From NCBI GenBank assembly GCA_964395275.1, contig CAYNBQ010000040.1, forward strand, positions 1 to 21,960: a stretch of 21,960 bases of DNA, read 5' to 3'. Of the stretch, positions 3,096 through 15,486 are shown piece after piece. A program made the position numbers and the translations under genes. The DNA is from an uncultured Verrucomicrobiota bacterium (GTDB taxonomy: Bacteria; Verrucomicrobiota; CALLYA01; CAYNBQ01). Under the pieces are notes generated by a model. The model made no database searches, was not told the origin of the DNA, and was given only the letters and a program-made list of their open reading frames with translations. Every line of letters starts with the position of its first letter. The first letter of the stretch is position 1.

Positions 3096-4004
3096 ATGAA
3101 CGAGATTCCCGGGGCGGACGCAGGTGACGAGATCGTGGTCGCCGGAGAACGGTTTCACACCGGCACGCCGGTGGTGCTCTGGTCGGATCCGGGCGGATAC
3201 AACGCCTACCTGGAACACCGGTTCTTCGAACCCGGCGAGATCCTGCCTTCCCAGGCGTCCGTCGATCGGCCGCGCCGCTACGACGAACGCGTTCCGGAGG
3301 ACGACGCCCTGGCCGAACGCGTGGCCGAAGAGGGTTGGACCCTGGAGAACCTGCAACGGGCCGTCCGGCTCTTCGTCATCCACTACGATGTCTGCGTCAC
3401 GTCCCGATACTGTTTCCGCGTGCTGCACGACGTGCGCGGGTTGTCCGTGCATTTCATGCTGGATCTCGACGGGACGATCTACCAGACCCTCGATCTCCGC
3501 GAACGCGGCCGGCATTCCGGGCCGGCCAACAATCCCTCGATCGGCGTCGAGATCGCCCATATCGGGGCCTATCCCGACACCGAAATCCTCGACCAGTGGT
3601 ACCGCCCCGACGAGACCGGCCGGTTGCGCGTGGTCCTTCCCGAGGAGAGAGGCGACGGAGGGATCCGGACCCCGGGATTCGTCGCCCGCCCGGCGCGCCC
3701 CGGTCTCTTCGAGGGAACGATCCACGGCCGGCGCCTCGTTCAGTACGATTTCACCGAGGAACAGTACCGCGCCCTCGGGCGGCTGACCGCAGCCGTGGCG
3801 AGGGCCCTGCCGCGGATCCGCCCGGAGGCGCCGCGCGACGCCGCCGGGAAGGTGCGCGCCGACCGGTTGAGCGACGGCGAACTGGCGCGGTTCGAGGGGC
3901 TGGTCGGCCACTGGCACCTGACGACGAACAAGATCGATCCGGGTCCGGCGTTCGACTGGGACCGGGTGTTGAACGACGCCCGCCGGTTCCTGGCGGAATC
4001 CTGA
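3096..4004 (+). CDS. N-acetylmuramoyl-L-alanine amidase, Amidase_2 (PGRP/AmpD-type) family, cytoplasmic paralog
   Basis: 302 aa. Amidase_2 core (VIHYDVC...[20 protein letters not shown]...[18 protein letters not shown]...). C-terminal [17 protein letters not shown] matches the Zn-ligand His / K.DPGP.F motif of AmpD and PGRPs. No signal peptide. About 100-aa N-terminal extension ([28 protein letters not shown]...) shared with the next gene. The GGAGG RBS sits 6 nt upstream of the ATG. Confidence 0.8.
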
Positions 4005-5029
4005 TGCGACTCGACCGGGCGGGGCGGAGCCGAACCTTCCTGCGATGGGCGGCCGCGTCGGCGATTCTCTGCGCCGCCCCGGCGTGCCGCCGCCGCAAAC
4101 CGCCGCCGGAAGAGCGGGTCGGCGACGAGATCGTCGTCGCCGGCCGGATGTTCCACACCGGCACGCCGGTCGTTCTCTGGTCGGATCCCGGCGGCTACGA
4201 CGCCTACCGGGAAACCTGTTTCTTCGTTCCGGACCGAGTCATGCCCTCTTCGAAGACCTACCGGGGCGGGCCGAAACGATACGGCGTGCGCAACCCGGGG
4301 GAAGGGGAGATCGCGCGGCGGGTGCGCGAGAAAGGCTGGACGCTCGAAAACCTCCGGGACTTCGTCCATCTCTTCGTGATCCACTACGACGCCTGCGGCA
4401 CGTCGAAACGCTGTTTCCGGGTCCTCCACGACGGCCGCGGCCTGTCCGTGCATTTCATGCTCGATCTCGACGGGACGATCTACCAGACCCTCGATCTCCG
4501 CGAACGGGCGCGGCACGCGGGTCTCTACAACAGCCGGTCGATCGGCATCGAGATCGCGAACATCGGCGCGTACGCGGACGGGGAACGGCTGGAGAAGTGG
4601 TATCGACGGGACGGGGACGGGCGGTTGCGCGTCGTCCTGCCCGCGGACGACGAGAGCGAAGGGATCCGCACCCCCGGCTTCGTCGCCCGTCCCGCGCGGC
4701 AGGAACTCGTCGAGGGCGAGATCCACGGAAAACGTTTCCGCCAGTACGACTACACGCCCGAGCAGTACGAAGCGCTGGCCCGCCTCACGGCGGCGCTGCA
4801 CCGGATCTTCCCCCTGATCCGGCTCGACGCGCCGCGGGACGAGGAAGGCCGGGTCCGGACCGACGTGCTCTCCCGCACGGAAATCCTCTCCTTCGGCGGG
4901 CTCGTGGGCCACCTGCACATCTCCTCCCGGAAAATCGACCCGGGACCGGCGTTCGACTGGGAAGGCGTCCTCCGGAACGCCCGCCGCATCTACCGCGAGA
5001 CGTCCGGCGCGCGACGGTCGAATCGCTGA
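4004..5029 (+). CDS. N-acetylmuramoyl-L-alanine amidase, Amidase_2 family, exported or lipoprotein paralog
   Basis: Its ATG shares one base with the TGA of the previous gene (cTGATGc). N-terminus [28 protein letters not shown] is signal-peptide or lipobox-like. The rest is collinear with, and about 60-65% identical to, the upstream paralog, including the [17 protein letters not shown] motif. Track ORF 3335..5029 is an out-of-frame upstream extension through the previous gene and is not real. Confidence 0.8.
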   Translation: MRLDRAGRSRTFLRWAAASAILCAAPACRRRKPPPEERVGDEIVVAGRMFHTGTPVVLWSDPGGYDAYRETCFFVPDRVMPSSKTYRGGPKRYGVRNPGEGEIARRVREKGWTLENLRDFVHLFVIHYDACGTSKRCFRVLHDGRGLSVHFMLDLDGTIYQTLDLRERARHAGLYNSRSIGIEIANIGAYADGERLEKWYRRDGDGRLRVVLPADDESEGIRTPGFVARPARQELVEGEIHGKRFRQYDYTPEQYEALARLTAALHRIFPLIRLDAPRDEEGRVRTDVLSRTEILSFGGLVGHLHISSRKIDPGPAFDWEGVLRNARRIYRETSGARRSNR

Positions 5030-5046
5030 ACGGCCCTGGCATCCTG

Positions 5047-5079
5047 CATCCGGGCCCGGGGCGACGGATGTTTCTCGTT
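5047..5079 (+). terminator. Candidate intrinsic terminator after the amidase pair
   Basis: Hairpin catccg-ggcccggggcga-cggatg: 6-bp stem (5047-5052 / 5065-5070) with a GC-rich 12-nt loop, followed directly by TTTCTCGTT. Lies 18 nt after the amidase stop. Confidence 0.35.
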
Positions 5080-5192
5080 GACATTCCCTCCCCTGATGCG
5101 GTGGCATCGTCGCCGGCGGTTTCGCGACGAACCGAATCTTCGCGCCGGATGCGGGAAGAAGGAATTCTCACGCAGGGGAGGATCGTTGCGCG

Positions 5193-6302
5193 ATGTGCGG
5201 CGACACCGGGAAGAGACATCCGTTCCGAAGGGAACGCCTGCGTCGTCCCACGCCGTTCCACAGGATGTTCGACCGGCCGCGGCGTCGGAACGCCCTGGTC
5301 GAGTTGAACAACGCCCTGGCGGAAGCCGTGAGGATCCGGGACGTTCCGGAAACGCTCGTCTATGAGTTGAACCGGAAATACCAGCTGGATCTCCAGAGGG
5401 TTTTCCGCAGGCGCCTCGAAAGGATGTACCGGGAGTTCATCCTGTTCTGCATGCAGGACGAACGTTTCGACGACGACGAGGTGGAAGACCTCTCGCATCT
5501 CCAGCTGCTCTTCGGCATCTCCAACCCCCGGCACAACGAGATCTACCTGGAGACGGCCGAGGAGAAGTACGGGAAGACCGTGGACGAGGTGCTTGCGGAC
5601 GGGCGGGTCACCGACGCCGAAAAGGCCCGGCTGGAACGGATGAGGAAGGATCTCGAGATCCCGGAATCGACGGCGGCCCGGCTCCTTCAGGACAAGGGGG
5701 GCAAGGTGCTGGCGAAACGGTGGCAGGAGGCCGTCGACGACGGACTCCTCTCCCCGGAGGAGGAACGGGAGCTGGACGCACTGGCGAAACGACTCGGCAT
5801 CGAGGTGCATCCGACGGAGAAGAGCCGGGAAGAGATCGAGCGGTGCCGGTGGAGATGGCGGATCGTCAACGGGACGCCTCCGCAGATCCCGGTGTCCATT
5901 CATCTTCCGCGGGGAGAGGTCTGCTATTTCAAGACGGACGTCGCCTGGTACGAGCTGCGCCGCGTGACCCGCAGGATCCGGTACGGCGGTCCGACGATGC
6001 GGATCAAGCTCATGAAGGGAGTGTACTGGAGAATGGGCGATCTCGGGGTCCGATCCGTTTCGGAAGACGTGATGACCCGGATCGACGAAGGGACCGTGTA
6101 CGTGACGAATCGGCGGCTTCTCTTCCGCGGTGAGAGGAAGAACACATCGATCCGGCTCTCGAAGATCCTGGATATCACGCCCCATCGCAACGGGGTCGAG
6201 ATCGAGAAGGACACCGGCCGTTCCCCCTTCCTCGAGTTCCACAGCGACGTCGACATCTTCTGCGCCGCCCTCACGCGCGCCATCGAGGATGCGATCCGAT
6301 GA
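5193..6302 (+). CDS. Hypothetical soluble protein: N-terminal acidic helical repeats (TerB-like?) plus C-terminal bacterial PH/GRAM-like domain
   Basis: 369-aa ORF with GGAGGA 10 nt upstream of the ATG at 5193. An alternative ATG exists at 5265 (MFDRP...). No TM segments. Repeated helical D/E-rich units (DDDEVEDLSHLQLLFGIS; DDGLLSPEEERELDALAKRLGIEV). The C-terminal approximately 150 aa is all-beta (TDVAWYELRRVTRRIRYG...GTVYVTNRRLLFRGERKNTSIRLSKILDITPHRNGVEIEK), as in bPH_2/YokE-type PH domains. Its stop TGA (6300-6302) overlaps the ATG of the channel gene. Confidence 0.6.
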   Translation: MCGDTGKRHPFRRERLRRPTPFHRMFDRPRRRNALVELNNALAEAVRIRDVPETLVYELNRKYQLDLQRVFRRRLERMYREFILFCMQDERFDDDEVEDLSHLQLLFGISNPRHNEIYLETAEEKYGKTVDEVLADGRVTDAEKARLERMRKDLEIPESTAARLLQDKGGKVLAKRWQEAVDDGLLSPEEERELDALAKRLGIEVHPTEKSREEIERCRWRWRIVNGTPPQIPVSIHLPRGEVCYFKTDVAWYELRRVTRRIRYGGPTMRIKLMKGVYWRMGDLGVRSVSEDVMTRIDEGTVYVTNRRLLFRGERKNTSIRLSKILDITPHRNGVEIEKDTGRSPFLEFHSDVDIFCAALTRAIEDAIR

Positions 6303-6315
6303 ACCGGAAACGGGC
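6264..6315. repeat. 52-bp direct repeat, copy 1 (spans the upstream gene's 3' end, the stop and the first 6 codons of the channel gene)
   Basis: gccgccctcacgcgcgccatcgaggatgcgatccgatgaaccggaaacgggc. Identical to 7113-7164 except one base (6295 T versus 7144 C). Copy spacing is 849 bp. Confidence 0.9.
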
Positions 6316-7105
6316 ATGGGAGATCGTCGAGGTTGCCCGTCAGGGGGACAGGGCGAGCCGCCTCTTCGATGTCGGCATTCTCACGCTGATCTTTCTCAAC
6401 GTGATCGCAGTTGTCATCGGATCCGTCCGATCGGTGCGGGAACGCTGGGGTCTTTATCTCGATGTTTTCGAAGTCTTTTCGGTTGCAGTCTTCACGCTGG
6501 AATATGCCACGCGAGTCTGGGCATGTACCGCTAACGACCGCTATCGCGAACCGATACGGGGACGCATCCGATTTGCGTTCACGCCAATGGCCATCATCGA
6601 CCTCCTGGCGTTCCTGCCCTTCTATCTGCCTTTCGTGGGATTCGACCTCCGGTCGATGCGGGTGCTGCGCCTGCTGCGCGTTTTCCGGATCGCGAAGATG
6701 AGCAGGTACTATTCTTCAATGCAATTGATCAGGAACGTTCTCCGTGCCAAGAGAGAAGGCCTTGTCCTCAGTTCCGTGATCATGTTGTCGCTGTTGGTGA
6801 TGGCGTCGAGTGTCTTGTACTACCTCGAGAATCCAGTGCAACCGGACACGTTTTCGAGCATCCCGGCAACGATGTGGTGGGCGGTGGCGACGCTCACGAC
6901 GGTGGGATACGGCGACATGTATCCCGTAACCGCCGCCGGGAAATTCTTCGCAGGTGTGATTGCTGTTCTCGGGATCGGCATGTTCGCCTTGCCGACCGGC
7001 ATCCTCGGAGCCGGCTTTGTCGAGGAGATTGGGAAGCGCAACAAGCCTGCCCGGGCTTGCCCCTTCTGCGGAAGGACGATCCCGCCGGATGACGACAGTA
7101 TCTGA
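6299..7105 (+). CDS. Voltage-gated K+ channel (6-TM Kv/KvAP-like, ion_trans family)
   Basis: 268 aa. Six predicted TM helices. S4 has Arg at every third position (LRSMRVLRLLRVFRIAKMSRYYS). The pore loop carries the canonical K+ selectivity filter (TMWWAVATLTTVGYGDMYP). S6 is glycine-rich (GVIAVLGIGMFALPTGILGAGF). Short C-tail with CPFCGR. Start ATG overlaps the stop of the upstream ORF (ATGA). Confidence 0.92.
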   Translation: MNRKRAWEIVEVARQGDRASRLFDVGILTLIFLNVIAVVIGSVRSVRERWGLYLDVFEVFSVAVFTLEYATRVWACTANDRYREPIRGRIRFAFTPMAIIDLLAFLPFYLPFVGFDLRSMRVLRLLRVFRIAKMSRYYSSMQLIRNVLRAKREGLVLSSVIMLSLLVMASSVLYYLENPVQPDTFSSIPATMWWAVATLTTVGYGDMYPVTAAGKFFAGVIAVLGIGMFALPTGILGAGFVEEIGKRNKPARACPFCGRTIPPDDDSI

Positions 7106-7112
7106 TCCGTAG

Positions 7113-7164
7113 GCCGCCCTCACGCGCGCCATCGAGGATGCGACCCGATGAACCGGAAACGGGC
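7113..7164. repeat. 52-bp direct repeat, copy 2 (intergenic, just after the channel stop at 7105)
   Basis: gccgccctcacgcgcgccatcgaggatgcgacccgatgaaccggaaacgggc. Encodes ...AALTRAIEDATR* followed by a decapitated MNRKRA... start. The sequence downstream diverges from the channel gene. Confidence 0.9.
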
Positions 7165-7199
7165 GTCTTCCTCACGGGAGGGCGACACTCCGCCGCGGT

Positions 7200-8315
7200 C
7201 TACCAGTCCCTCGAGTCCGGGACTTCCAGCCATTCCCCGCCGCGCTCGATCGATTCCCGGCTGACGAGGCCGGGCAGGGTCAGGTCCATCGCCTCGTGGA
7301 TCCCCACGGTCGGCGGTTCTCCGCGGACGACGGCGTCGACGAAGTCGCGGATCACGAAATAGTCGCCGCCCCCGTGGCCCGCCGAGCGGACCGCATCGGG
7401 CAGCTCGCGGAGAAGGTCGGGGAGGAACTCGTCCTCGATCTCTTCGAGGTCCGTCCACCGATGCGGATCCTCGCAACGGTCGGCAAGCCAGATCTTGTGA
7501 TGTTCGCCCGGGTGGCGCGCGGATTCGAAACAGCCTCTGGTTCCCTGCAGCGTGTAGTTGTTCGTCGCATGGGGCCGGTTCGAGAGCATGTCGACCCGGA
7601 TCCGGATCAGTCGCCCGCGCTCGGTTCCGGCCGGCATCAGGCAGGTGTCCTCGTTCTCGTAGGGTTTCCCCTCGGAATCGACGTAGTGATGCCCGGATCC
7701 GACGCAACAGAGGCGGGCGACCCGGTCCCCCTCCATCCACTGCAGGATCGGGCCGAGGCTGTGCGTGCCGTAGGTGATCCCGTTGACGCCCGTCTGCCAG
7801 ATCCGCCGCCACGGGGTGGCGACCTGAAGCCCTTTCAACTCGTGGATGTACTCGCCCTCGGCGTAATAGAGCTCGCCGAAGAAGCCCCGGCGGACCATCT
7901 CCCGGACGACGAGGTTCGAGCGCGTGTAGATGTAGTTCTCGGCCATCGCGTAGACGGCGCCGCTCTCCCGGCAGGCGGCGACCAGTTCGCGGCATTCCTC
8001 CAGGCTCACGGCCGCCGTGACTTCCGACAGGACGTGAATGCCCCGGCGGAGGGCGGCGATCGACATCGGGGCGTGGTGCTGCATGGGCGTGGCGATCAGG
8101 ACGGCGTCCAGTTCGGAACGGTCCAGCATCTCCTCGTAATCCGTCCAGGCCTCGGCCGCGCCGAGGGTTTTCCGCGCGGATTCGACCTTCTCCGGGTCGA
8201 TGTCGCAGACCGCGTGCAGCCGCAGTTCCGGGCAGGCGCGTATCGATTCACCGAAGGACCCGCCGCGGCCCGCGGCGCCCACGACGCCCAGGTTCAGCTT
8301 CTCGATTTCCTGCAT
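7200..8315 (-). CDS. Gfo/Idh/MocA-family NAD(P)-dependent oxidoreductase
   Basis: 371 aa. N-terminal Rossmann fold (LNLGVVGAAGRGGSFGES) with the family-typical layout (EKVESARKTLG...; AVLIATPMQHHAPMSIAALRRGIHVLSEV). ATG at 8313-8315 with a GGTGA-type RBS. Lies 4 nt downstream of the preceding gene's stop. Confidence 0.85.
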   Translation of the reverse strand: MQEIEKLNLGVVGAAGRGGSFGESIRACPELRLHAVCDIDPEKVESARKTLGAAEAWTDYEEMLDRSELDAVLIATPMQHHAPMSIAALRRGIHVLSEVTAAVSLEECRELVAACRESGAVYAMAENYIYTRSNLVVREMVRRGFFGELYYAEGEYIHELKGLQVATPWRRIWQTGVNGITYGTHSLGPILQWMEGDRVARLCCVGSGHHYVDSEGKPYENEDTCLMPAGTERGRLIRIRVDMLSNRPHATNNYTLQGTRGCFESARHPGEHHKIWLADRCEDPHRWTDLEEIEDEFLPDLLRELPDAVRSAGHGGGDYFVIRDFVDAVVRGEPPTVGIHEAMDLTLPGLVSRESIERGGEWLEVPDSRDW

Positions 8316-10302: not shown

Positions 10303-12030
10303 TCACCGGGGTGCAGCCGCCGTTTCCAGCCGGACCGAAACGCGCGGCAGCCAGGCGTCGGTGTGGTACGGCCGTCCTTCCCAGACGTAGTAGACGTCGG
10401 CGTAGGGCCGAATCCGCTTCTTGACGCCGTTGGACTCCCTCTTCGCCAGCTCGGGAGAAAAGACCAGTTCGTACTGCAGTTCGACGGAGGCGCCCGGCGC
10501 GAGTTCCTTCGGCGGTTCGTCCCCCACGAGGCGGGTCTTCACGAGATGATCTTCGCTCGGTTCCACGTCGGGACGCAGCCGGCCGTTGACGAAAACGAAG
10601 GCCGTGCCGCCGGGATAGTCCTTCTCGCTCTTGTCGCCGCAGGTGAAGACCAGGTCGGTCATCGGCGAATCCTCCAGGTTCCGGAAGCGGACCGTGGCGT
10701 GGTACGTCCTGCCGGCGATCACCTCGGGGGCGGTCTTCATCGTGCGCCGGGGGTCGTAGGGAAGGATCTCGAGATCCTTCGCTTCGAGCAGTTGCGCGGT
10801 CACCTCGTGCCGGGGGATGTACGGCGGGAAATGGTAGATCGTGTCGCCCTTGGGTTTGCCCTCGATGTCGATCAAGCCCCAGGGGCGCATGTAGGGCTTG
10901 ATCCAGTTCGGATCCGTGGTGCCGATGAAATAGCCGTCGAGATGGAATCCCTTCAGGTTGCCCTTCTCGTCGTATTCGGCGCGGGCCCGCTTTTCCCAGC
11001 CCCGGCCTCCCCAGTGGTCGTTCAGGACGAAGTAGGAGGCGCCGCAGACCCATTTCGGATCGTATTCGCCCGGCCGCGGCGTGGTGAGGTTGCGCCACCC
11101 GTCGAGAACCGTCTGCCGGTAGTGTTCGATCTCCGCGGGCGTGTAGGGACGCGTTCCCCCCCGGAAGGTCGGATCCTTGTCGATGCTGTCGGGCAGGGGG
11201 AAACAGGACCATCCTTCCGTGAGGATGATCGGGATGTCGGGATCGCCGCGGTAGGCCATCTCCTGGTGGCTTTCGATGACCTGTTCCATGTCGACGAAAC
11301 TGCCGCGGGGTCCGTAGGCGTGGATGGCGAGGATCTCGAAGTTGCCCTTGGCGCCCGCTTCGTAGAGGGCGCCGATGTGGTCGCGGTCGGAGTAGCAGAG
11401 TTGCCCGATGATGAGCCGGTTGTCCGGATGGGCCTTCTTCATGCCGCGGTGCACGGCCTTGATCGGATCCATGTAGTAGTAGTGCCAGTCCGGGAAATAC
11501 GGACGGTACGTCTCGGGAGCGACGAGATCGCGTTCGTTGCCCCCGGTGGAGAAGATCACGCGGTCGCCGTAGGTCTCCCGCGCGTAGCGGCAGGCGGCCT
11601 CCGCCCACTGTTCGAGGAGCCGGTTGTACCGGGGGATGTCGGTGAACCGGAACTTCTCGGCCCAGGGGTTCCCGAAGAACCGGAGATGGCAGATCAGGTA
11701 CTTGTGGTTCCGTTCCCAGGGATCGACGGTCACGCCGCTGAAATCGTAGACCGGTTCGCCGTCGCCGGGATCCTCCTTCTGGGTCGATCCCCAGTCGATC
11801 CCGAAATGGCCGGTGTTCTGTCCGGCGAGATCCTGGAACTTGCGCCGGATCTTGCGCGGCGGGCCGACGTCGTCGCAGTCCTCGCCGGGATCGCATCCCG
11901 GGGCGGTGAGCATGAGCATGAATCCCTCGGGGACCTCGCCGCGCGCCGGGACGGCTTCGCCCGCGCCGGCCGCGACGGCGAGCATTCCAACCAACAACGG
12001 AAAGCACAGATACAGGCGTCGTTCTTGCAC
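10303..12030 (-). CDS. Secreted putative glycoside hydrolase (TIM-barrel, clan GH-A-like)
   Basis: 575 aa. GTG start at 12030 preceded by GAGGAGAA. Sec signal peptide (MQERRLYLCFPLLVGMLAVAAGAGEA). Motifs resembling clan GH-A catalytic regions (NFEILAIHAYGP; IPIILTEGWS). Rich in Trp/Tyr, as expected for a carbohydrate-active enzyme. Family not recognised. Confidence 0.55.
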   Translation of the reverse strand: MQERRLYLCFPLLVGMLAVAAGAGEAVPARGEVPEGFMLMLTAPGCDPGEDCDDVGPPRKIRRKFQDLAGQNTGHFGIDWGSTQKEDPGDGEPVYDFSGVTVDPWERNHKYLICHLRFFGNPWAEKFRFTDIPRYNRLLEQWAEAACRYARETYGDRVIFSTGGNERDLVAPETYRPYFPDWHYYYMDPIKAVHRGMKKAHPDNRLIIGQLCYSDRDHIGALYEAGAKGNFEILAIHAYGPRGSFVDMEQVIESHQEMAYRGDPDIPIILTEGWSCFPLPDSIDKDPTFRGGTRPYTPAEIEHYRQTVLDGWRNLTTPRPGEYDPKWVCGASYFVLNDHWGGRGWEKRARAEYDEKGNLKGFHLDGYFIGTTDPNWIKPYMRPWGLIDIEGKPKGDTIYHFPPYIPRHEVTAQLLEAKDLEILPYDPRRTMKTAPEVIAGRTYHATVRFRNLEDSPMTDLVFTCGDKSEKDYPGGTAFVFVNGRLRPDVEPSEDHLVKTRLVGDEPPKELAPGASVELQYELVFSPELAKRESNGVKKRIRPYADVYYVWEGRPYHTDAWLPRVSVRLETAAAPR

Positions 12031-12041
12031 GGGACTTCTCC

Positions 12042-12072
12042 TCTGGAAAAGACACGTCTGGAAAAAGACACG
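12042..12072. promoter_or_regulatory. Tandem direct repeat (15 + 16 bp) in an AT-rich island just upstream of the 10303..12030 gene start
   Basis: tctggaaaagacacg (12042-12056) followed immediately by tctggaaaaagacacg (12057-12072). Each unit contains an ACACGT core. Sits about 12-40 bp upstream of the GTG at 12030 on the transcribed (minus) strand, in a 168-bp intergenic gap. Confidence 0.4.
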
Positions 12073-12105
12073 CGGAGAGTACCTTCGCAGACCCCGCCCG
12101 CCAAG

Positions 12106-12181
12106 AACGGGAAAAGAATTTCCGGGCCTTCCGCCGACGAGGCGATTCCGGCGGCGTTTCCGGCGCCTCCCGCCCGGAAGG
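12106..12181 (-). terminator. Candidate intrinsic terminator downstream of the 12199..15486 gene
   Basis: GC-rich inverted repeat ccttccg (12128-12134) ... cggaagg (12175-12181) with further internal pairing. On the minus strand it is followed by a U-rich tract (plus-strand aacgggaaaagaatttcc, 12106-12123). Begins 18 nt after the stop at 12199. Confidence 0.4.
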
Positions 12182-12198
12182 ATCGATTTCGACTCCGT

Positions 12199-15100
12199 TC
12201 AGTACGTGGTGAGGGTTTCCGAGACGGGGAAGGGGGAGGGGGCGCTTTCCACGGGGACGTCGTCGCGCGAGAGGATGTCGAACGAGACCCCGCCGGCATG
12301 GGGCGTCCCCGCATCGACGCCGTACTCGTACCGGGCGACCCGTTCGCGGTGGACGAGCATCGAAAAGTCCTGCAGCTCGATCTCCTGGTGGAAGCCGCTC
12401 GGCGTATCCCGTTCGCCGGAGTTGATCAGGATCAGCACGTCGTCCATCGGATTCTGAATCCGCAGCACGTACCGGTAGAACCGGGTCTCGTCGCCGACCG
12501 CGACCACGCTCCGCGTTCCGGCAAGCTCGATCCCGTCGTGCAGGACCAGCAGGGTGAACCGACCGTCCGGATCGTCCGTGCGCGCCCGGAACCGGATCTC
12601 GACCCGGTCGCCCGGCATGAGACCGGCGACGGGCCCGCCGGCAAACTGCGTCGTGGTCAGGCGCCACGATTGTCCTTCCACGACGGCTTCGACATCGATC
12701 CGGGCATGGAAGGGAACGACGTAGACCGTCCCCTCCCAGCTTCCGTCCTGCCGGACGCTCTTGAGGAGACCGGTTCGGGATGCGCCGGCGCCGACCTGCA
12801 CGATGTTGTACCGCTGCTCGGGGCGGGCGCCGGCCGGTCGGACCACCGCTCGAACGGGGCCGACGCCGCCCGTGACGCCGGGGCGGGGGACGCCGTCCGC
12901 GGCCAGCGATTCGTACGCCGCACGCGCCGTTTCGTTCCAGCCGGCGTCGTCCCAGGTCATGTGATGCACGAACGAAACCCCGTGCTCGAAGACGTAACGG
13001 ATCTGTTGTTCGGCGGCGGACACGCTCGCGGTGTGCGGATGGTATTCGCCGATCGACACGAGGCCCAGGCCGGAAGAAAACGATCCCTGGATCCAGTTCC
13101 GCGCGCGATCGTACCAGATGCCGTATCGGGTGCCGCCGTACCCGGTTCCGGCGGCCAGGCTCCAGGCGATGGGGGTGATCCGCCGGCCGCTCAGAACGTC
13201 GCCGACGGCGTAGTCCGCCGGGATCTGGTGGGTCTTGATGATCTCCGGAGGGAAACCGGCAAGAAGCGATTCCCGCATGCCTTGGGCGATGCGGAGGTTG
13301 ACCACCCTCCGTTCGTATTCGACCCACGCGTTGTAGAACGGGTTCGACGGGTCGTACGCGTCCCAGGCGCCGCGGCCGAGGTTGCGCGGCGGATCGAAGT
13401 CCTCCCGTCCCGCGAACGACGTGCCGTGGCGGCTGTTGACCTTGGCCAGGGTCGTGTACCGGCGCAGGAGATGATCGTAGAACCCGTCGATCATCGCCGG
13501 GTTGTAGTCGCCGATCGTCTCGTCGTCGGCAACGTAGATCTCGAACTCGTGATTCGGTTCGAGCGCGGCCAGCCGGGACGGGTCGCCGTCCGTTCCGCGG
13601 AACTTCGGCGCGAGACGGCGCAGGTACTCGCGCAGCGGCCACACGATCAACCGCTCCAGGGGCGCCACGTCCGGCGCCCAGGTCATCACGTAGAACCGGC
13701 TGTCGCCCTCGCCGTAGGTCGTTTGGCGATCGAGCCGCGTCAGCGCCGTGAACCGGGGGAGGCCCGTGTCGGGATCGACGGCGTCGTGCCACGCGTCGAA
13801 TGTTCCGATGAACTGCCGATGGGAGGCGGTCGGTTCCCAGACCGACGGAAGACCGAGCGCATACTCCGCCTGGGTGCGTTCGATGAAATCCAGGAAACTC
13901 CCGCCCGCCCAGTGATCGTAGTCTTCGTTGTCGAAATCGACGTTCTCGCTGTACCCGGGGCTGGCGGCGTCGGTGCGGATGTGGCGGAAGGTCCCGGGCC
14001 GGACGAACTCCGACCAGGGATCCGTCGGCGGGGGAGGCGCGAAGAGGGGATCGTCGCTGACCGCGACCCAGTCGACGCGGGCTTCGAAACCGCGGAAGGC
14101 CTCCCACGTGCCGCCGTCGGGAAGGTCCAGCCGAAGGCGGGCGATGACGCCCTCGTGGGGGCTCATACCGGGGGTGGCGTTGGCCGGAAGGTTCAGGCGG
14201 ACCACCTGGGTCCCGTTGTGCAGGGAAAACGCCGCCCGCCCGACCCCGCCTCCTTCCGGATACCAGAAGACGGCCCCGGTGAAGGTCCCCGCGGGGCCTC
14301 CGGAAACGGTCAACGACATCGCGAACTCCTGCAGGACGTCCCCGTCGTAGTCGGCGACCGGTCCGAGGATGTAGGGGTCGAACGGGGATCCGTCATGCAC
14401 CCGAAGCACCAGCGCGCCGGATTCATACCCGGCGATGCAGGAGGAACTCTTCGCGTACCAGCCCTGCGGGTGGGAATCGAAGGTGTAGACCGGCTCCCCG
14501 CGAGGCGGATCGATCGGGTGGATCCGGAAGAGGTTTTCCCGCCGTCCGACGTCGTGCCGGGCGATGTTCCCGGCGTCGTCGATCGTCCAGAGGGTGGAGA
14601 GAAGGGGTTCCTCCGCCCCGGCGGCGACGCGTTCGTCGGCGAAGGCGGATTCCCACGGGCGGAAGCCCGAAGGAAGACCGTCCGCGGCGAGTTCCTTGAG
14701 AAGACCCCGGTCCGGTTCGAGCGCATACAGACGGCCGCCGGGATGATAGGCCAGCAACAGCACGTCCGGACCGCGGACGTGCATCACGGACATCTCCACG
14801 CGGTTCGTCGCCCCTTGCCAGGGCGCCGGCGCCGCCGTCGTCTTGCGCAGAACGCCGTCGCCGTCGTAGAGGAGGATCCGCCGGTTGTCCTCCCCCGCGT
14901 GACGCGACGTCACGGCGATTTCCTCCCCGGCAACGTCCTCCAGGAAATCGCCGACGGCGACGACGAAGGGCGGATCGAGTTCGGACGCGGGAGCGAAGAC
15001 CGATCGAAGGACGCCGTCTTCCCGGAAGATCCGGATCTCCCGGGTGTTCGTCGCCGAGAAGGGGACGGCGACGATCTGCACGTCCGGCGGAAAGATGCGA

Positions 15101-15486
15101 CCGGCGGCGACCCGCACGCCGCCCGTCACGGACGTCGGGTAGGCCAGGAACTGCAGTTCGGCGATCCCGTAGCGGTTCAGGATCCGGACGACCGTGAGGT
15201 TCATGGATGATTCGCCTTGGCCGGCGACGAGACGGGGTCCGGGGGGCACGAGGGGCGGATCGACCTCGGTCTCTGTCCTTTCGAGTTGCGCGGCCAGGTC
15301 GAGATCGGGATCCGGGACCTGGACCCAGCTCAAGCCGTCCATGCCGCGAGCCGGCGTCGCGGCGAGCGTTGAAAGGAGAACCGCCCCGCGGAGGCATCGC
15401 GCGAACCGACGCCTTCGAGCCGTTTCCGCCCCCCTCCGGACCGGGTCCGCGGCCGGGGGGCGATCCTGCGATCGGCGCGTCTTCAC
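12199..15486 (-). CDS. Large secreted multidomain protein, putative glycoside hydrolase (beta-propeller/beta-sandwich N-terminal region plus GH-A-like TIM barrel)
   Basis: 1095-aa ORF. The track start is GTG at 15486; an ATG at 15340-15342 is an alternative. Neither has a convincing RBS. N-terminal twin-arginine-like signal (ARRRRFARCLRGAVLLSTLAATPARG). FG-GAP/propeller-like repeats (VAVGDFLEDVAGEEIAVT; LLYDGDGVLR). Later TIM-barrel-like motifs (LEPNHEFEIYVADDE; VSIGEYHPH; HHMTWDDAGWNE). Family not recognised. Confidence 0.5.
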   Translation of the reverse strand: MKTRRSQDRPPAADPVRRGAETARRRRFARCLRGAVLLSTLAATPARGMDGLSWVQVPDPDLDLAAQLERTETEVDPPLVPPGPRLVAGQGESSMNLTVVRILNRYGIAELQFLAYPTSVTGGVRVAAGRIFPPDVQIVAVPFSATNTREIRIFREDGVLRSVFAPASELDPPFVVAVGDFLEDVAGEEIAVTSRHAGEDNRRILLYDGDGVLRKTTAAPAPWQGATNRVEMSVMHVRGPDVLLLAYHPGGRLYALEPDRGLLKELAADGLPSGFRPWESAFADERVAAGAEEPLLSTLWTIDDAGNIARHDVGRRENLFRIHPIDPPRGEPVYTFDSHPQGWYAKSSSCIAGYESGALVLRVHDGSPFDPYILGPVADYDGDVLQEFAMSLTVSGGPAGTFTGAVFWYPEGGGVGRAAFSLHNGTQVVRLNLPANATPGMSPHEGVIARLRLDLPDGGTWEAFRGFEARVDWVAVSDDPLFAPPPPTDPWSEFVRPGTFRHIRTDAASPGYSENVDFDNEDYDHWAGGSFLDFIERTQAEYALGLPSVWEPTASHRQFIGTFDAWHDAVDPDTGLPRFTALTRLDRQTTYGEGDSRFYVMTWAPDVAPLERLIVWPLREYLRRLAPKFRGTDGDPSRLAALEPNHEFEIYVADDETIGDYNPAMIDGFYDHLLRRYTTLAKVNSRHGTSFAGREDFDPPRNLGRGAWDAYDPSNPFYNAWVEYERRVVNLRIAQGMRESLLAGFPPEIIKTHQIPADYAVGDVLSGRRITPIAWSLAAGTGYGGTRYGIWYDRARNWIQGSFSSGLGLVSIGEYHPHTASVSAAEQQIRYVFEHGVSFVHHMTWDDAGWNETARAAYESLAADGVPRPGVTGGVGPVRAVVRPAGARPEQRYNIVQVGAGASRTGLLKSVRQDGSWEGTVYVVPFHARIDVEAVVEGQSWRLTTTQFAGGPVAGLMPGDRVEIRFRARTDDPDGRFTLLVLHDGIELAGTRSVVAVGDETRFYRYVLRIQNPMDDVLILINSGERDTPSGFHQEIELQDFSMLVHRERVARYEYGVDAGTPHAGGVSFDILSRDDVPVESAPSPFPVSETLTTY

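Follow-up and report, generated by a model that had tools for sequence, protein, structure and literature searches.

In a 21,960-nucleotide (nt) stretch of an uncultured Verrucomicrobiota genome (assembly GCA_964395275.1, contig CAYNBQ010000040.1, positions 1 to 21,960; hereafter the window), we found the gene of a voltage-gated K+ (Kv) channel translationally coupled to that of a soluble protein. Because pairs of this kind turn up in many bacterial phyla, the soluble protein is probably an accessory or regulatory factor of bacterial Kv channels that has so far gone undescribed. The upstream open reading frame (ORF1; 5193-6302, + strand, taken from the list of open reading frames) encodes a 369-amino-acid (aa) protein with TerB-type repeats and a PH-like domain, and the downstream gene (6299-7105, + strand, assigned from the same list and Pfam) encodes a Kv-type K+ channel of 268 aa with segments S1-S6. 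We give about an even chance to the reading that the channel acts together with ORF1 as its cytoplasmic, membrane-peripheral partner, most likely a regulatory (auxiliary) subunit. A sequence-only reading of this DNA had raised the idea of a sensor-effector or regulatory-subunit module, and comparative linkage in several independent arrangements now favors it.

The two genes form one operon. The ATG of the channel overlaps the TGA stop of ORF1 in the tetranucleotide ATGA (6299-6302, + strand), an overlap that the sequence-only reading had already pointed out and that is kept in relatives. A Shine-Dalgarno sequence for the channel, GAGGA (6285-6289, + strand), is embedded in the 3' end of ORF1, 9 nt before the ATG. 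For ORF1 itself, the start at 5193 is backed by N-terminal conservation of an HPF motif with the homologues P0002 and P0003 in an alignment of 38 homologues over their full length (alignment A1), and a Shine-Dalgarno-like AGGGGAGGA stands 10 nt 5' of the ATG (5174-5182, + strand). The overlap and both Shine-Dalgarno elements were read directly from the sequence. Upstream, 164 nt lie between the stop of the preceding amidase gene and ORF1, and this gap and the good Shine-Dalgarno sequence would allow a separate promoter for ORF1. A candidate terminator had been placed at 5047-5079 to set the pair apart from the amidase genes. This terminator is weak at best and is not supported: it was absent from our terminator scan and has no clean T-run, and the fold of 5030-5095 is only marginally better than that of shuffled sequences (z -1.5; 14 of 200 shuffles fold equally well).

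Recurrence of the pairing

We compared 93 loci, obtained from exact-protein look-ups and from a metagenome scan with a 10-sequence alignment. In a tree of the ORF1 family, one group of loci (clade A: L006-L008, L014, L047 and L083) falls with the window, and all of its members have a Kv gene of the same subfamily immediately downstream on the same strand. Identity to the window's ORF1 is 50% in L006-L008, 50% in L014, 57% in L047 (a partial contig) and 55% over the C-terminal part in L083, where the gene order is the same with a gap of ~85 nt. The ATGA overlap and the internal Shine-Dalgarno sequence are kept in L047, L006 and L014 despite a difference in GC content of ~47% versus ~63%, with CAGGA(T/C) as the counterpart of the window's GAGGA. 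The ORF1/channel junction is ancestral in clade A, and a sister lineage (L001-L003) is without a channel. As a side observation, the ORF1 homologue and Kv gene of L006 (5171-7062) have a third-position GC content (GC3) of 0.46-0.47, compared with 0.58-0.67 in the upstream genes, as if moved as a unit.

More distant members of the ORF1 family adjoin Kv genes in other ways. In clade B (L058, L059, L060 and L067), whose proteins are 30-33% identical to ORF1, a Kv gene of a different subfamily (~250 aa, S4 RLLRLLRLVR, TVGYGD filter, coiled-coil tail) is convergent and lies 20-30 nt from the stop. The same second subfamily is found at L082 in divergent orientation, while L078 carries a K+ pore ~250 nt downstream of the ORF1 homologue and L076 a Kv gene 2.5 kb away from it. 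The convergent Kv of L067 (5096-5870, - strand) matches in two frames, and this frameshift marks either a pseudogene or a sequencing error. Taken with the DUF4236 loci described below, these arrangements bear out the co-occurrence that the sequence-only reading had looked for between homologues of the upstream protein and Kv genes elsewhere. That reading had also reckoned with a channel that has an unrelated neighbor in relatives; this is what we found upstream of the nearest channel homologues, P0047 (70% identical) and P0048 (68%), but not at the clade A loci, where the Kv gene is coupled to the partner.

A Pfam census of the nearest ORFs at ~55 dereplicated loci returned Ion_trans as the sole recurrent family, with 7 of 85 downstream ORFs plus one upstream; the next best family reached 2. 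When loci were grouped into clusters at 90% identity, 42 clusters had a downstream flank of 800 nt or more, and 7 of these have an adjacent channel. Counted as four independent events, the linkage has a binomial P of 1.8e-6 to 1e-2 at a background of 0.001 to 0.01 per neighbor slot, and even so counted, channel adjacency is unlikely by chance under any realistic background rate. One might still hold that adjacency has no functional meaning and that an operon shared by a few lineages was enriched through common ancestry and sampling. The linked loci are confined to few clades, most members of both families are unlinked, and the census was built on short metagenome contigs, all of which would fit such an account. 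It is harder to reconcile with four or more distinct arrangements in which two Kv subfamilies take part, with an overlap kept across a large GC shift, and with a remote homologue of the partner that is 4-nt-coupled to the same Kv subfamily in several phyla; we consider it improbable. The genetic linkage expected of an auxiliary subunit is present, and it is recurrent, not universal or obligatory.

The remote homologue accompanies P0076 and P0099, the Kv proteins closest to the channels of L006 and L014. Directly before each of these two Kv genes, and overlapping it by 4 nt, lies the gene of a ~394-aa protein annotated only as DUF4236, and partners of this type are coupled to Kv genes at loci L099, L100 and L102. 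They consist of a DUF4236 N-terminus, two transmembrane (TM) helices, two helical repeats with a D-x6-E motif and a C-terminal PH-like domain that has the TNKR-x-F core of ORF1. Profile comparison with the ORF1 family (hhalign) gave 96.6% and E 5.5e-10 over 210 columns spanning the two repeats and the PH-like domain. These proteins (L099, L100, L102) are thus like ORF1 in their homologous repeats and PH-like domain and in the 4-nt overlap with a CPHCG-tailed Kv, but they differ in their two TM anchors, in the N-terminal DUF4236, in having two repeats instead of three, and in being without the hairpin insertion of the PH-like domain. By homology, a single module thus exists in a soluble and a membrane-anchored form, remotely related to each other, and both forms are translationally coupled to the same Kv subfamily.

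Close relatives of the DUF4236-type partner were found in Thiohalocapsa, Verrucomicrobiota, Binatia, Hydrogenedentota, a Pacebacteria genome and Desulfocicer. The lists of Kv and DUF4236-type homologues coincide 15 times in the size of the longest contig; if the listed Kv homologues are limited to the 44 with contigs of 5 kb or more, 9 coincide in this way with a listed DUF4236-type member. Such a coincidence is a proxy for a shared contig and no proof of adjacency. In full-text literature searches, DUF4236 was mentioned by one paper, in an unrelated context, and its proteins are uncharacterized. At two loci (L100, 2266-2784; L101, 803-1321) the last ~20 nt of the Kv gene also belong to a small gene (172 aa, without clear family), which may be a third member of the operon.

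Domains of the partner and the channel

Hydropathy analysis finds no hydrophobic segment in ORF1 (maximum 19-residue Kyte-Doolittle mean 0.92), in agreement with the earlier statement that the 369-aa protein is without TM segments, and the protein is highly charged (64 D+E, 71 K+R). Its AlphaFold2 model has a mean predicted local distance difference test score (pLDDT) of 91.3. The family to which it belongs is large: a word-indexed search gave 44 matches, and 1041 representatives at 50% identity were retrieved at E<=1e-30 from 1.84 billion proteins.

A helical region at residues ~72-226 (5406-5870, + strand), delimited by Pfam, profile and alignment, contains three 47-aa repeats of TerB/Tic110 type. 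Each has a D-x6-E motif (D89/E96, D136/E143, D183/E190), spaced by exactly 47 residues, and the D and E of all three are invariant or nearly so among the homologues of A1; D-x6-E on helical hairpins is what we take to be the signature of TerB. The Pfam family Tic110 matches ORF1 above its gathering threshold (29.9 bits against 27; residues 74-215) and matches 36 of the 38 relatives, and the ORF1-family profile finds the Tic110 structure 4bm5 in the PDB at E 1.5e-18. Pfam TerB (PF05099) reaches 16.1 bits with ORF1 itself, below the cut-off of 24.4. It matches 30 of the 38 relatives at E<=0.05 (best E 3.8e-13), and the family profile finds the TerB structure 2ou3 at E 0.023.

The C-terminal part of ORF1 (residues 235-369; 5895-6299, + strand) is a PH/GRAM-like domain, a seven-stranded beta-sandwich capped by a C-terminal helix. 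In structural comparison it gave values of 13.6 with the PH-like domain of Lam6, 13.2 with pICln, 13.1 with the GRAM domain of MTMR2 and 12.8 with the GLUE domain of Vps36, and Foldseek agrees. At the level of sequence the resemblance is faint: Pfam GRAM reaches 16 bits (cut-off 23.6) and matches 12 of the 38 relatives weakly, and GRAM, Vps36-GLUE and CheF-arch are each matched by 12-14 of them. Within the domain, a basic/aromatic hairpin, RYGGPTMRIKLMKGVYWRMG (residues 263-282; 5979-6038, + strand), is family-specific and forms the most conserved stretch of sequence, modeled with lower confidence. The sequence-only reading had guessed acidic TerB-type helical repeats followed by a PH/GRAM-like domain. 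Both assignments proved correct, the former on the Tic110, 4bm5 and TerB matches, the latter on the fold values and the agreement of Foldseek.

The channel matches Pfam Ion_trans at E 1.5e-30 over residues 21-243 (106.6 bits, cut-off 25), as expected of a six-TM Kv channel, and also Ion_trans_2 at E 1e-15. Hydropathy peaks occur at residues 22, 97, 155 and 218, in addition to the S4 segment. The latter, RSMRVLRLLRVFRIAKMSR (residues 118-136; 6650-6706, + strand), has R or K at every third position, namely five Arg, one Lys and one further Arg in register. Motif coordinates also locate the K+ selectivity filter TVGYGD (residues 201-206; 6899-6916), the S6 hinge LPTGI (6989-7003) and a C-terminal CPFCG knuckle (7058-7072), all on the + strand. 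In the PDB, KCNQ2/4/5 match best, at E ~1e-33 (1.4e-33 for KCNQ2) across residues 25-248. Homologues of the same subfamily number more than 7900 with a length of ~262 aa, and the best 120 of them are 63-70% identical and come from Phycisphaerae, Planctomycetota, Verrucomicrobiota, Latescibacteria and others. These features mark it as a minimal S1-S6 Kv channel from a large, unusually conserved subfamily, and a voltage-dependent K+ conductance is predicted. A Pfam search of the window proteins found no RCK/KTN domain in the channel or its partner. When 120 channel sequences were checked (the P0047-P0165 set), all but one had a C..C tail of CPHCG type ~20 residues past S6 (119 of 120), and the four tails of a tetramer could make intersubunit metal sites just under the gate.

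Genomic surroundings and the flanking repeat

The genes around the pair in the window encode an SPFH protein, rubrerythrin, two Amidase_2 proteins, a GFO/IDH/MocA oxidoreductase (convergent to the pair), an inositol monophosphatase-family protein and aconitase, and related loci adjoin PGI, BamA/OmpH/LpxD, aromatic amino-acid genes and AmtB/PII. These surroundings bear on the suggestion, made in the sequence-only reading, of anti-phage abortive infection, in which infection would be sensed by the TerB/PH protein, which would then open the channel and so depolarize the cell. K+-selective Kv channels tend to hyperpolarize or stabilize the membrane potential and would hardly collapse it. TerB domains do occur in the Bunzi and Shango defense systems (bioRxiv 10.1101/2022.05.11.491447), and a PADLOC candidate, PDC-S48, matches ORF1 residues 121-217 at E 1.9e-13; this match is, however, limited to the repeat region and covers profile positions 226-318 of 411, a part of its length, and the channel has no PADLOC match. 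A toxin-antitoxin gene, AbiGi or an integrase appears as a single neighbor at a few related loci, set against the housekeeping neighbors of the window and of related loci, which indicate neither a defense island nor a mobile element. In a scan of 2.9 million viral contigs with alignment A2, no relative was confirmed. Given the housekeeping context, the domain-level PADLOC match and the absence of viral relatives, a defense role is unsupported, and we regard it as very improbable.

Two features of the surroundings may be recorded in their own right. The Amidase_2 (N-acetylmuramoyl-L-alanine amidase) genes directly 5' of the pair (3096-4004 and 4016-5029, + strand) are tandem paralogues. Further downstream, an ORF of 1615 aa (10363-15210, + strand) has no Pfam match, as is also the case for long ORFs on the opposite strand, and GC skew is positive from ~10.5 kb onward.

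The channel gene is bracketed by two copies of a 52-nt direct repeat, which the sequence-only reading had noticed and a repeat search recovered. Copy 1 (6264-6315, + strand) lies at the native ORF1/channel junction, where it spans the last 35 nt of ORF1, the GAGGA, the ATGA and the first 17 nt of the channel; copy 2 (7113-7164, + strand) starts 8 nt past the channel stop and sits between it and the convergent gene. The copies are 51/52 identical at a spacing of 849 nt, far beyond chance. An equivalent repeat is absent in L006, L008, L014 and L083, and neither the repeat (z -0.35 and 0.22) nor the intergenic region 7100-7200 folds into RNA structure significantly better than shuffled sequence. 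In copy 2, a duplicate Shine-Dalgarno sequence (7134-7138) and an ATG at 7148 open a 38-codon ORF (MNRKRASSSREG...; 7148-7264, + strand). It is antisense to the 3' end of the GFO/IDH/MocA gene and probably meaningless, yet it duplicates the translation start.

Most simply, the repeat would have originated as a tandem duplication that has since decayed, the alternative being a rearrangement that accompanied replacement of the channel. An assembly artifact is another candidate, although both novel junctions would have to be present in the reads for a de Bruijn assembler to emit them. An integron attC site was rejected, as the repeat is a direct copy of coding sequence with no significant hairpin and no GTTRRRY core seen by inspection. 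A transposon target duplication was likewise rejected, as what was copied is coding sequence, at a junction that is ancestral in the clade. Recombination between the copies would delete the channel precisely and leave ORF1 intact with one I-to-T change.

The composition of the channel gene also sets it apart, with a GC3 of 0.73 compared with 0.82-0.91 in seven other genes of the window (ORF1, 0.84). An intrinsically low GC3 of Kv genes was considered and dismissed, as that of the Kv gene equals or exceeds that of its neighbors in L094, L100 and L102. Low GC3, the flanking repeats and the fact that linked Kv genes are not a clade suggest that the channel gene has a history separate from that of ORF1, by replacement or re-acquisition. 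The repeat itself is a genome-specific feature separate from the pairing.

Proposed role and comparison with known systems

We sought further indications of function in the wider ORF1 family, reading domain fusions among the best 150 of its 1041 representatives. Three proteins (P0195, P0197 and P0235) combine the module with one to three FtsK-gamma winged-helix domains. Another (P0298) adds a zinc ribbon and a C-terminal DnaJ (J) domain, a logic seen also in DjlA. In P0171, P0173 and P0175, our reading of the sequences indicates an added N-terminal TM anchor, and no channel domain was fused to the module in the longer proteins read from this set. Use of the module thus extends beyond channels, as far as these predicted architectures go. 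A search of genome contigs with ORF1 alone returned only a Levilactobacillus protein, and the common part is the PH-like domain. That protein, from Levilactobacillus tujiorum (L013, 4749-5981), has 410 aa with an N-terminal hydrophobic stretch read as TM, a PH-like domain carrying the motifs KGVYWRMG and TNKR, and a C-terminal SHOCT; its gene, which may be part of a prophage, adjoins one for an ImmA-like HExxH protein. The TM-anchored variants and the Levilactobacillus protein support a location at the inner membrane face.

On the mechanism that we propose, the PH-like domain and its conserved basic/aromatic hairpin would hold the partner at the inner membrane face or at the cytoplasmic surface of the channel. 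The acidic TerB-like repeats may take up a ligand, for which a divalent cation, proposed also in the case of TerB, is the most plausible candidate. Its binding would alter channel gating, by analogy only with the action of calmodulin, KChIP and Kv-beta on eukaryotic Kv channels. Across the loci compared, the joining of a TerB-repeat/PH module to Kv genes has, by homology, arisen or been kept repeatedly in evolution.

The same observations would also suit a general membrane-peripheral sensor or adaptor that reports or answers membrane or ion status. Its outputs would vary by genome (Kv, J-domain, FtsK-gamma), and the channel would be one member of a shared stress or ion-homeostasis response, functionally related to the protein but not in complex with it. 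The fusions to FtsK_gamma and DnaJ fit this account, as do the many family members that stand alone in varied housekeeping neighborhoods and the convergent or divergent order of clade B, which amounts to proximity without co-translation. Against it, Ion_trans is the sole recurrent neighbor. Moreover, the 4-nt overlap is conserved in two remotely related versions of the partner, an arrangement usual for subunits of fixed proportion, which weighs against such a looser link. We regard the general sensor or adaptor as rather unlikely, though it is the likeliest of the alternatives.

Several points weigh against a regulatory subunit. About 83% of evaluable ORF1-family loci are without an adjacent channel, both families consist mostly of unlinked members, the nearest channel homologues (P0047, P0048) have unrelated upstream genes, and the distant DUF4236-type members L103 and L105 are without a Kv gene. 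The clade B genes, being convergent or divergent, are not co-transcribed, and the linked Kv genes are not monophyletic. The fusions to FtsK-gamma or DnaJ suggest a general adaptor or sensor role and not a dedicated channel subunit. In addition, cation binding by the D-x6-E motifs is extrapolated from proposals for TerB, and physical binding of partner and channel is predicted from their linkage.

A bolder version of the regulatory-subunit reading can be put forward tentatively, as a possibility well short of even. In the TerB-repeat/PH proteins, both soluble and DUF4236-anchored, prokaryotic Kv channels would have their first dedicated cytoplasmic auxiliary subunits, docking under a CPxCG-tailed tetramer whose gating would be set by a cytosolic ligand (a divalent cation or an anionic lipid). 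If true, this would provide the first concrete partner for a TerB-type repeat protein, a domain widespread in stress and defense loci, and a handle on the purpose of bacterial Kv channels. How bacterial voltage-gated K+ channels are regulated, and what role they have in physiology, is still poorly understood, and we know of no accessory subunit described for a prokaryotic Kv channel. Our full-text literature searches found no description of a TerB-repeat/PH and Kv pair or of a prokaryotic Kv accessory subunit, in line with the statement of the sequence-only reading that it was aware of no system coupling a TVGYGD Kv to such a partner. With a conserved coupled partner in two remote forms and several phyla, the question of Kv accessory proteins becomes testable.

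Comparison with described proteins places the parts of the pair more precisely. Binding of divalent cations has been proposed for TerB domains. Like TerB (PF05099) and the TerB-like domain of DjlA, ORF1 has acidic helical repeats with D-x6-E, but it differs in its three tandem repeats, in having no ter operon context and no TM anchor, and in its extra PH-like domain. The TerB domain is described as membrane-associated and its function called unknown in the cited literature (including bioRxiv 10.1101/2022.05.11.491447). The likeness to Tic110 of the chloroplast inner envelope (PF16940; 4bm5) is confined to the repeat units. The plastid protein Tic110 runs to ~1000 residues, has TM helices at its N-terminus and lacks a PH-like domain, whereas ORF1 is bacterial, cytoplasmic and 369 aa long and covers ~140 of the 574 positions of the Tic110 profile, a fraction of the full-length architecture. 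Given this short length, the lack of TM helices, the partial profile coverage and the bacterial context, ORF1 shares the Tic110 repeat type only and is not an orthologue. Compared with GRAM, GLUE and other PH-like domains (Lam6/Ltc1, myotubularins, Vps36), ORF1 has sequence matches below the curated cut-offs and adds the hairpin insertion at residues 263-282.

As a whole, the pair recalls bacterial K+ transport systems encoded beside a soluble cytoplasmic regulator, such as KefC/KefF, KefB/KefG and the RCK/KTN-regulated channels. These belong to other transporter or channel classes, however, and their regulators are flavodoxin-like or Rossmann-like. Another parallel is found in the eukaryotic complexes of Kv7/KCNQ with calmodulin, Kv4 with KChIP and Kv1 with Kv-beta, which combine, as is proposed for the window pair, a Kv pore with a soluble cytoplasmic partner that may bind a cation. 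KCNQ2/4/5 are also the closest solved structures to the window channel across S1-S6 (E ~1e-33). The channel has a P-x-G hinge in S6 (LPTGI), is without the long C-terminal helices of KCNQ, and ends ~25 residues past S6 with CPxCG. Its partner is unrelated to calmodulin and KChIP (EF-hand) or to Kv-beta (aldo-keto reductase) and is made instead of TerB/Tic110-type repeats and a PH-like domain. Were the proposed regulation true, the pair would be a bacterial counterpart of the control of KCNQ by calmodulin and PIP2, and would give the TerB fold a concrete molecular function.

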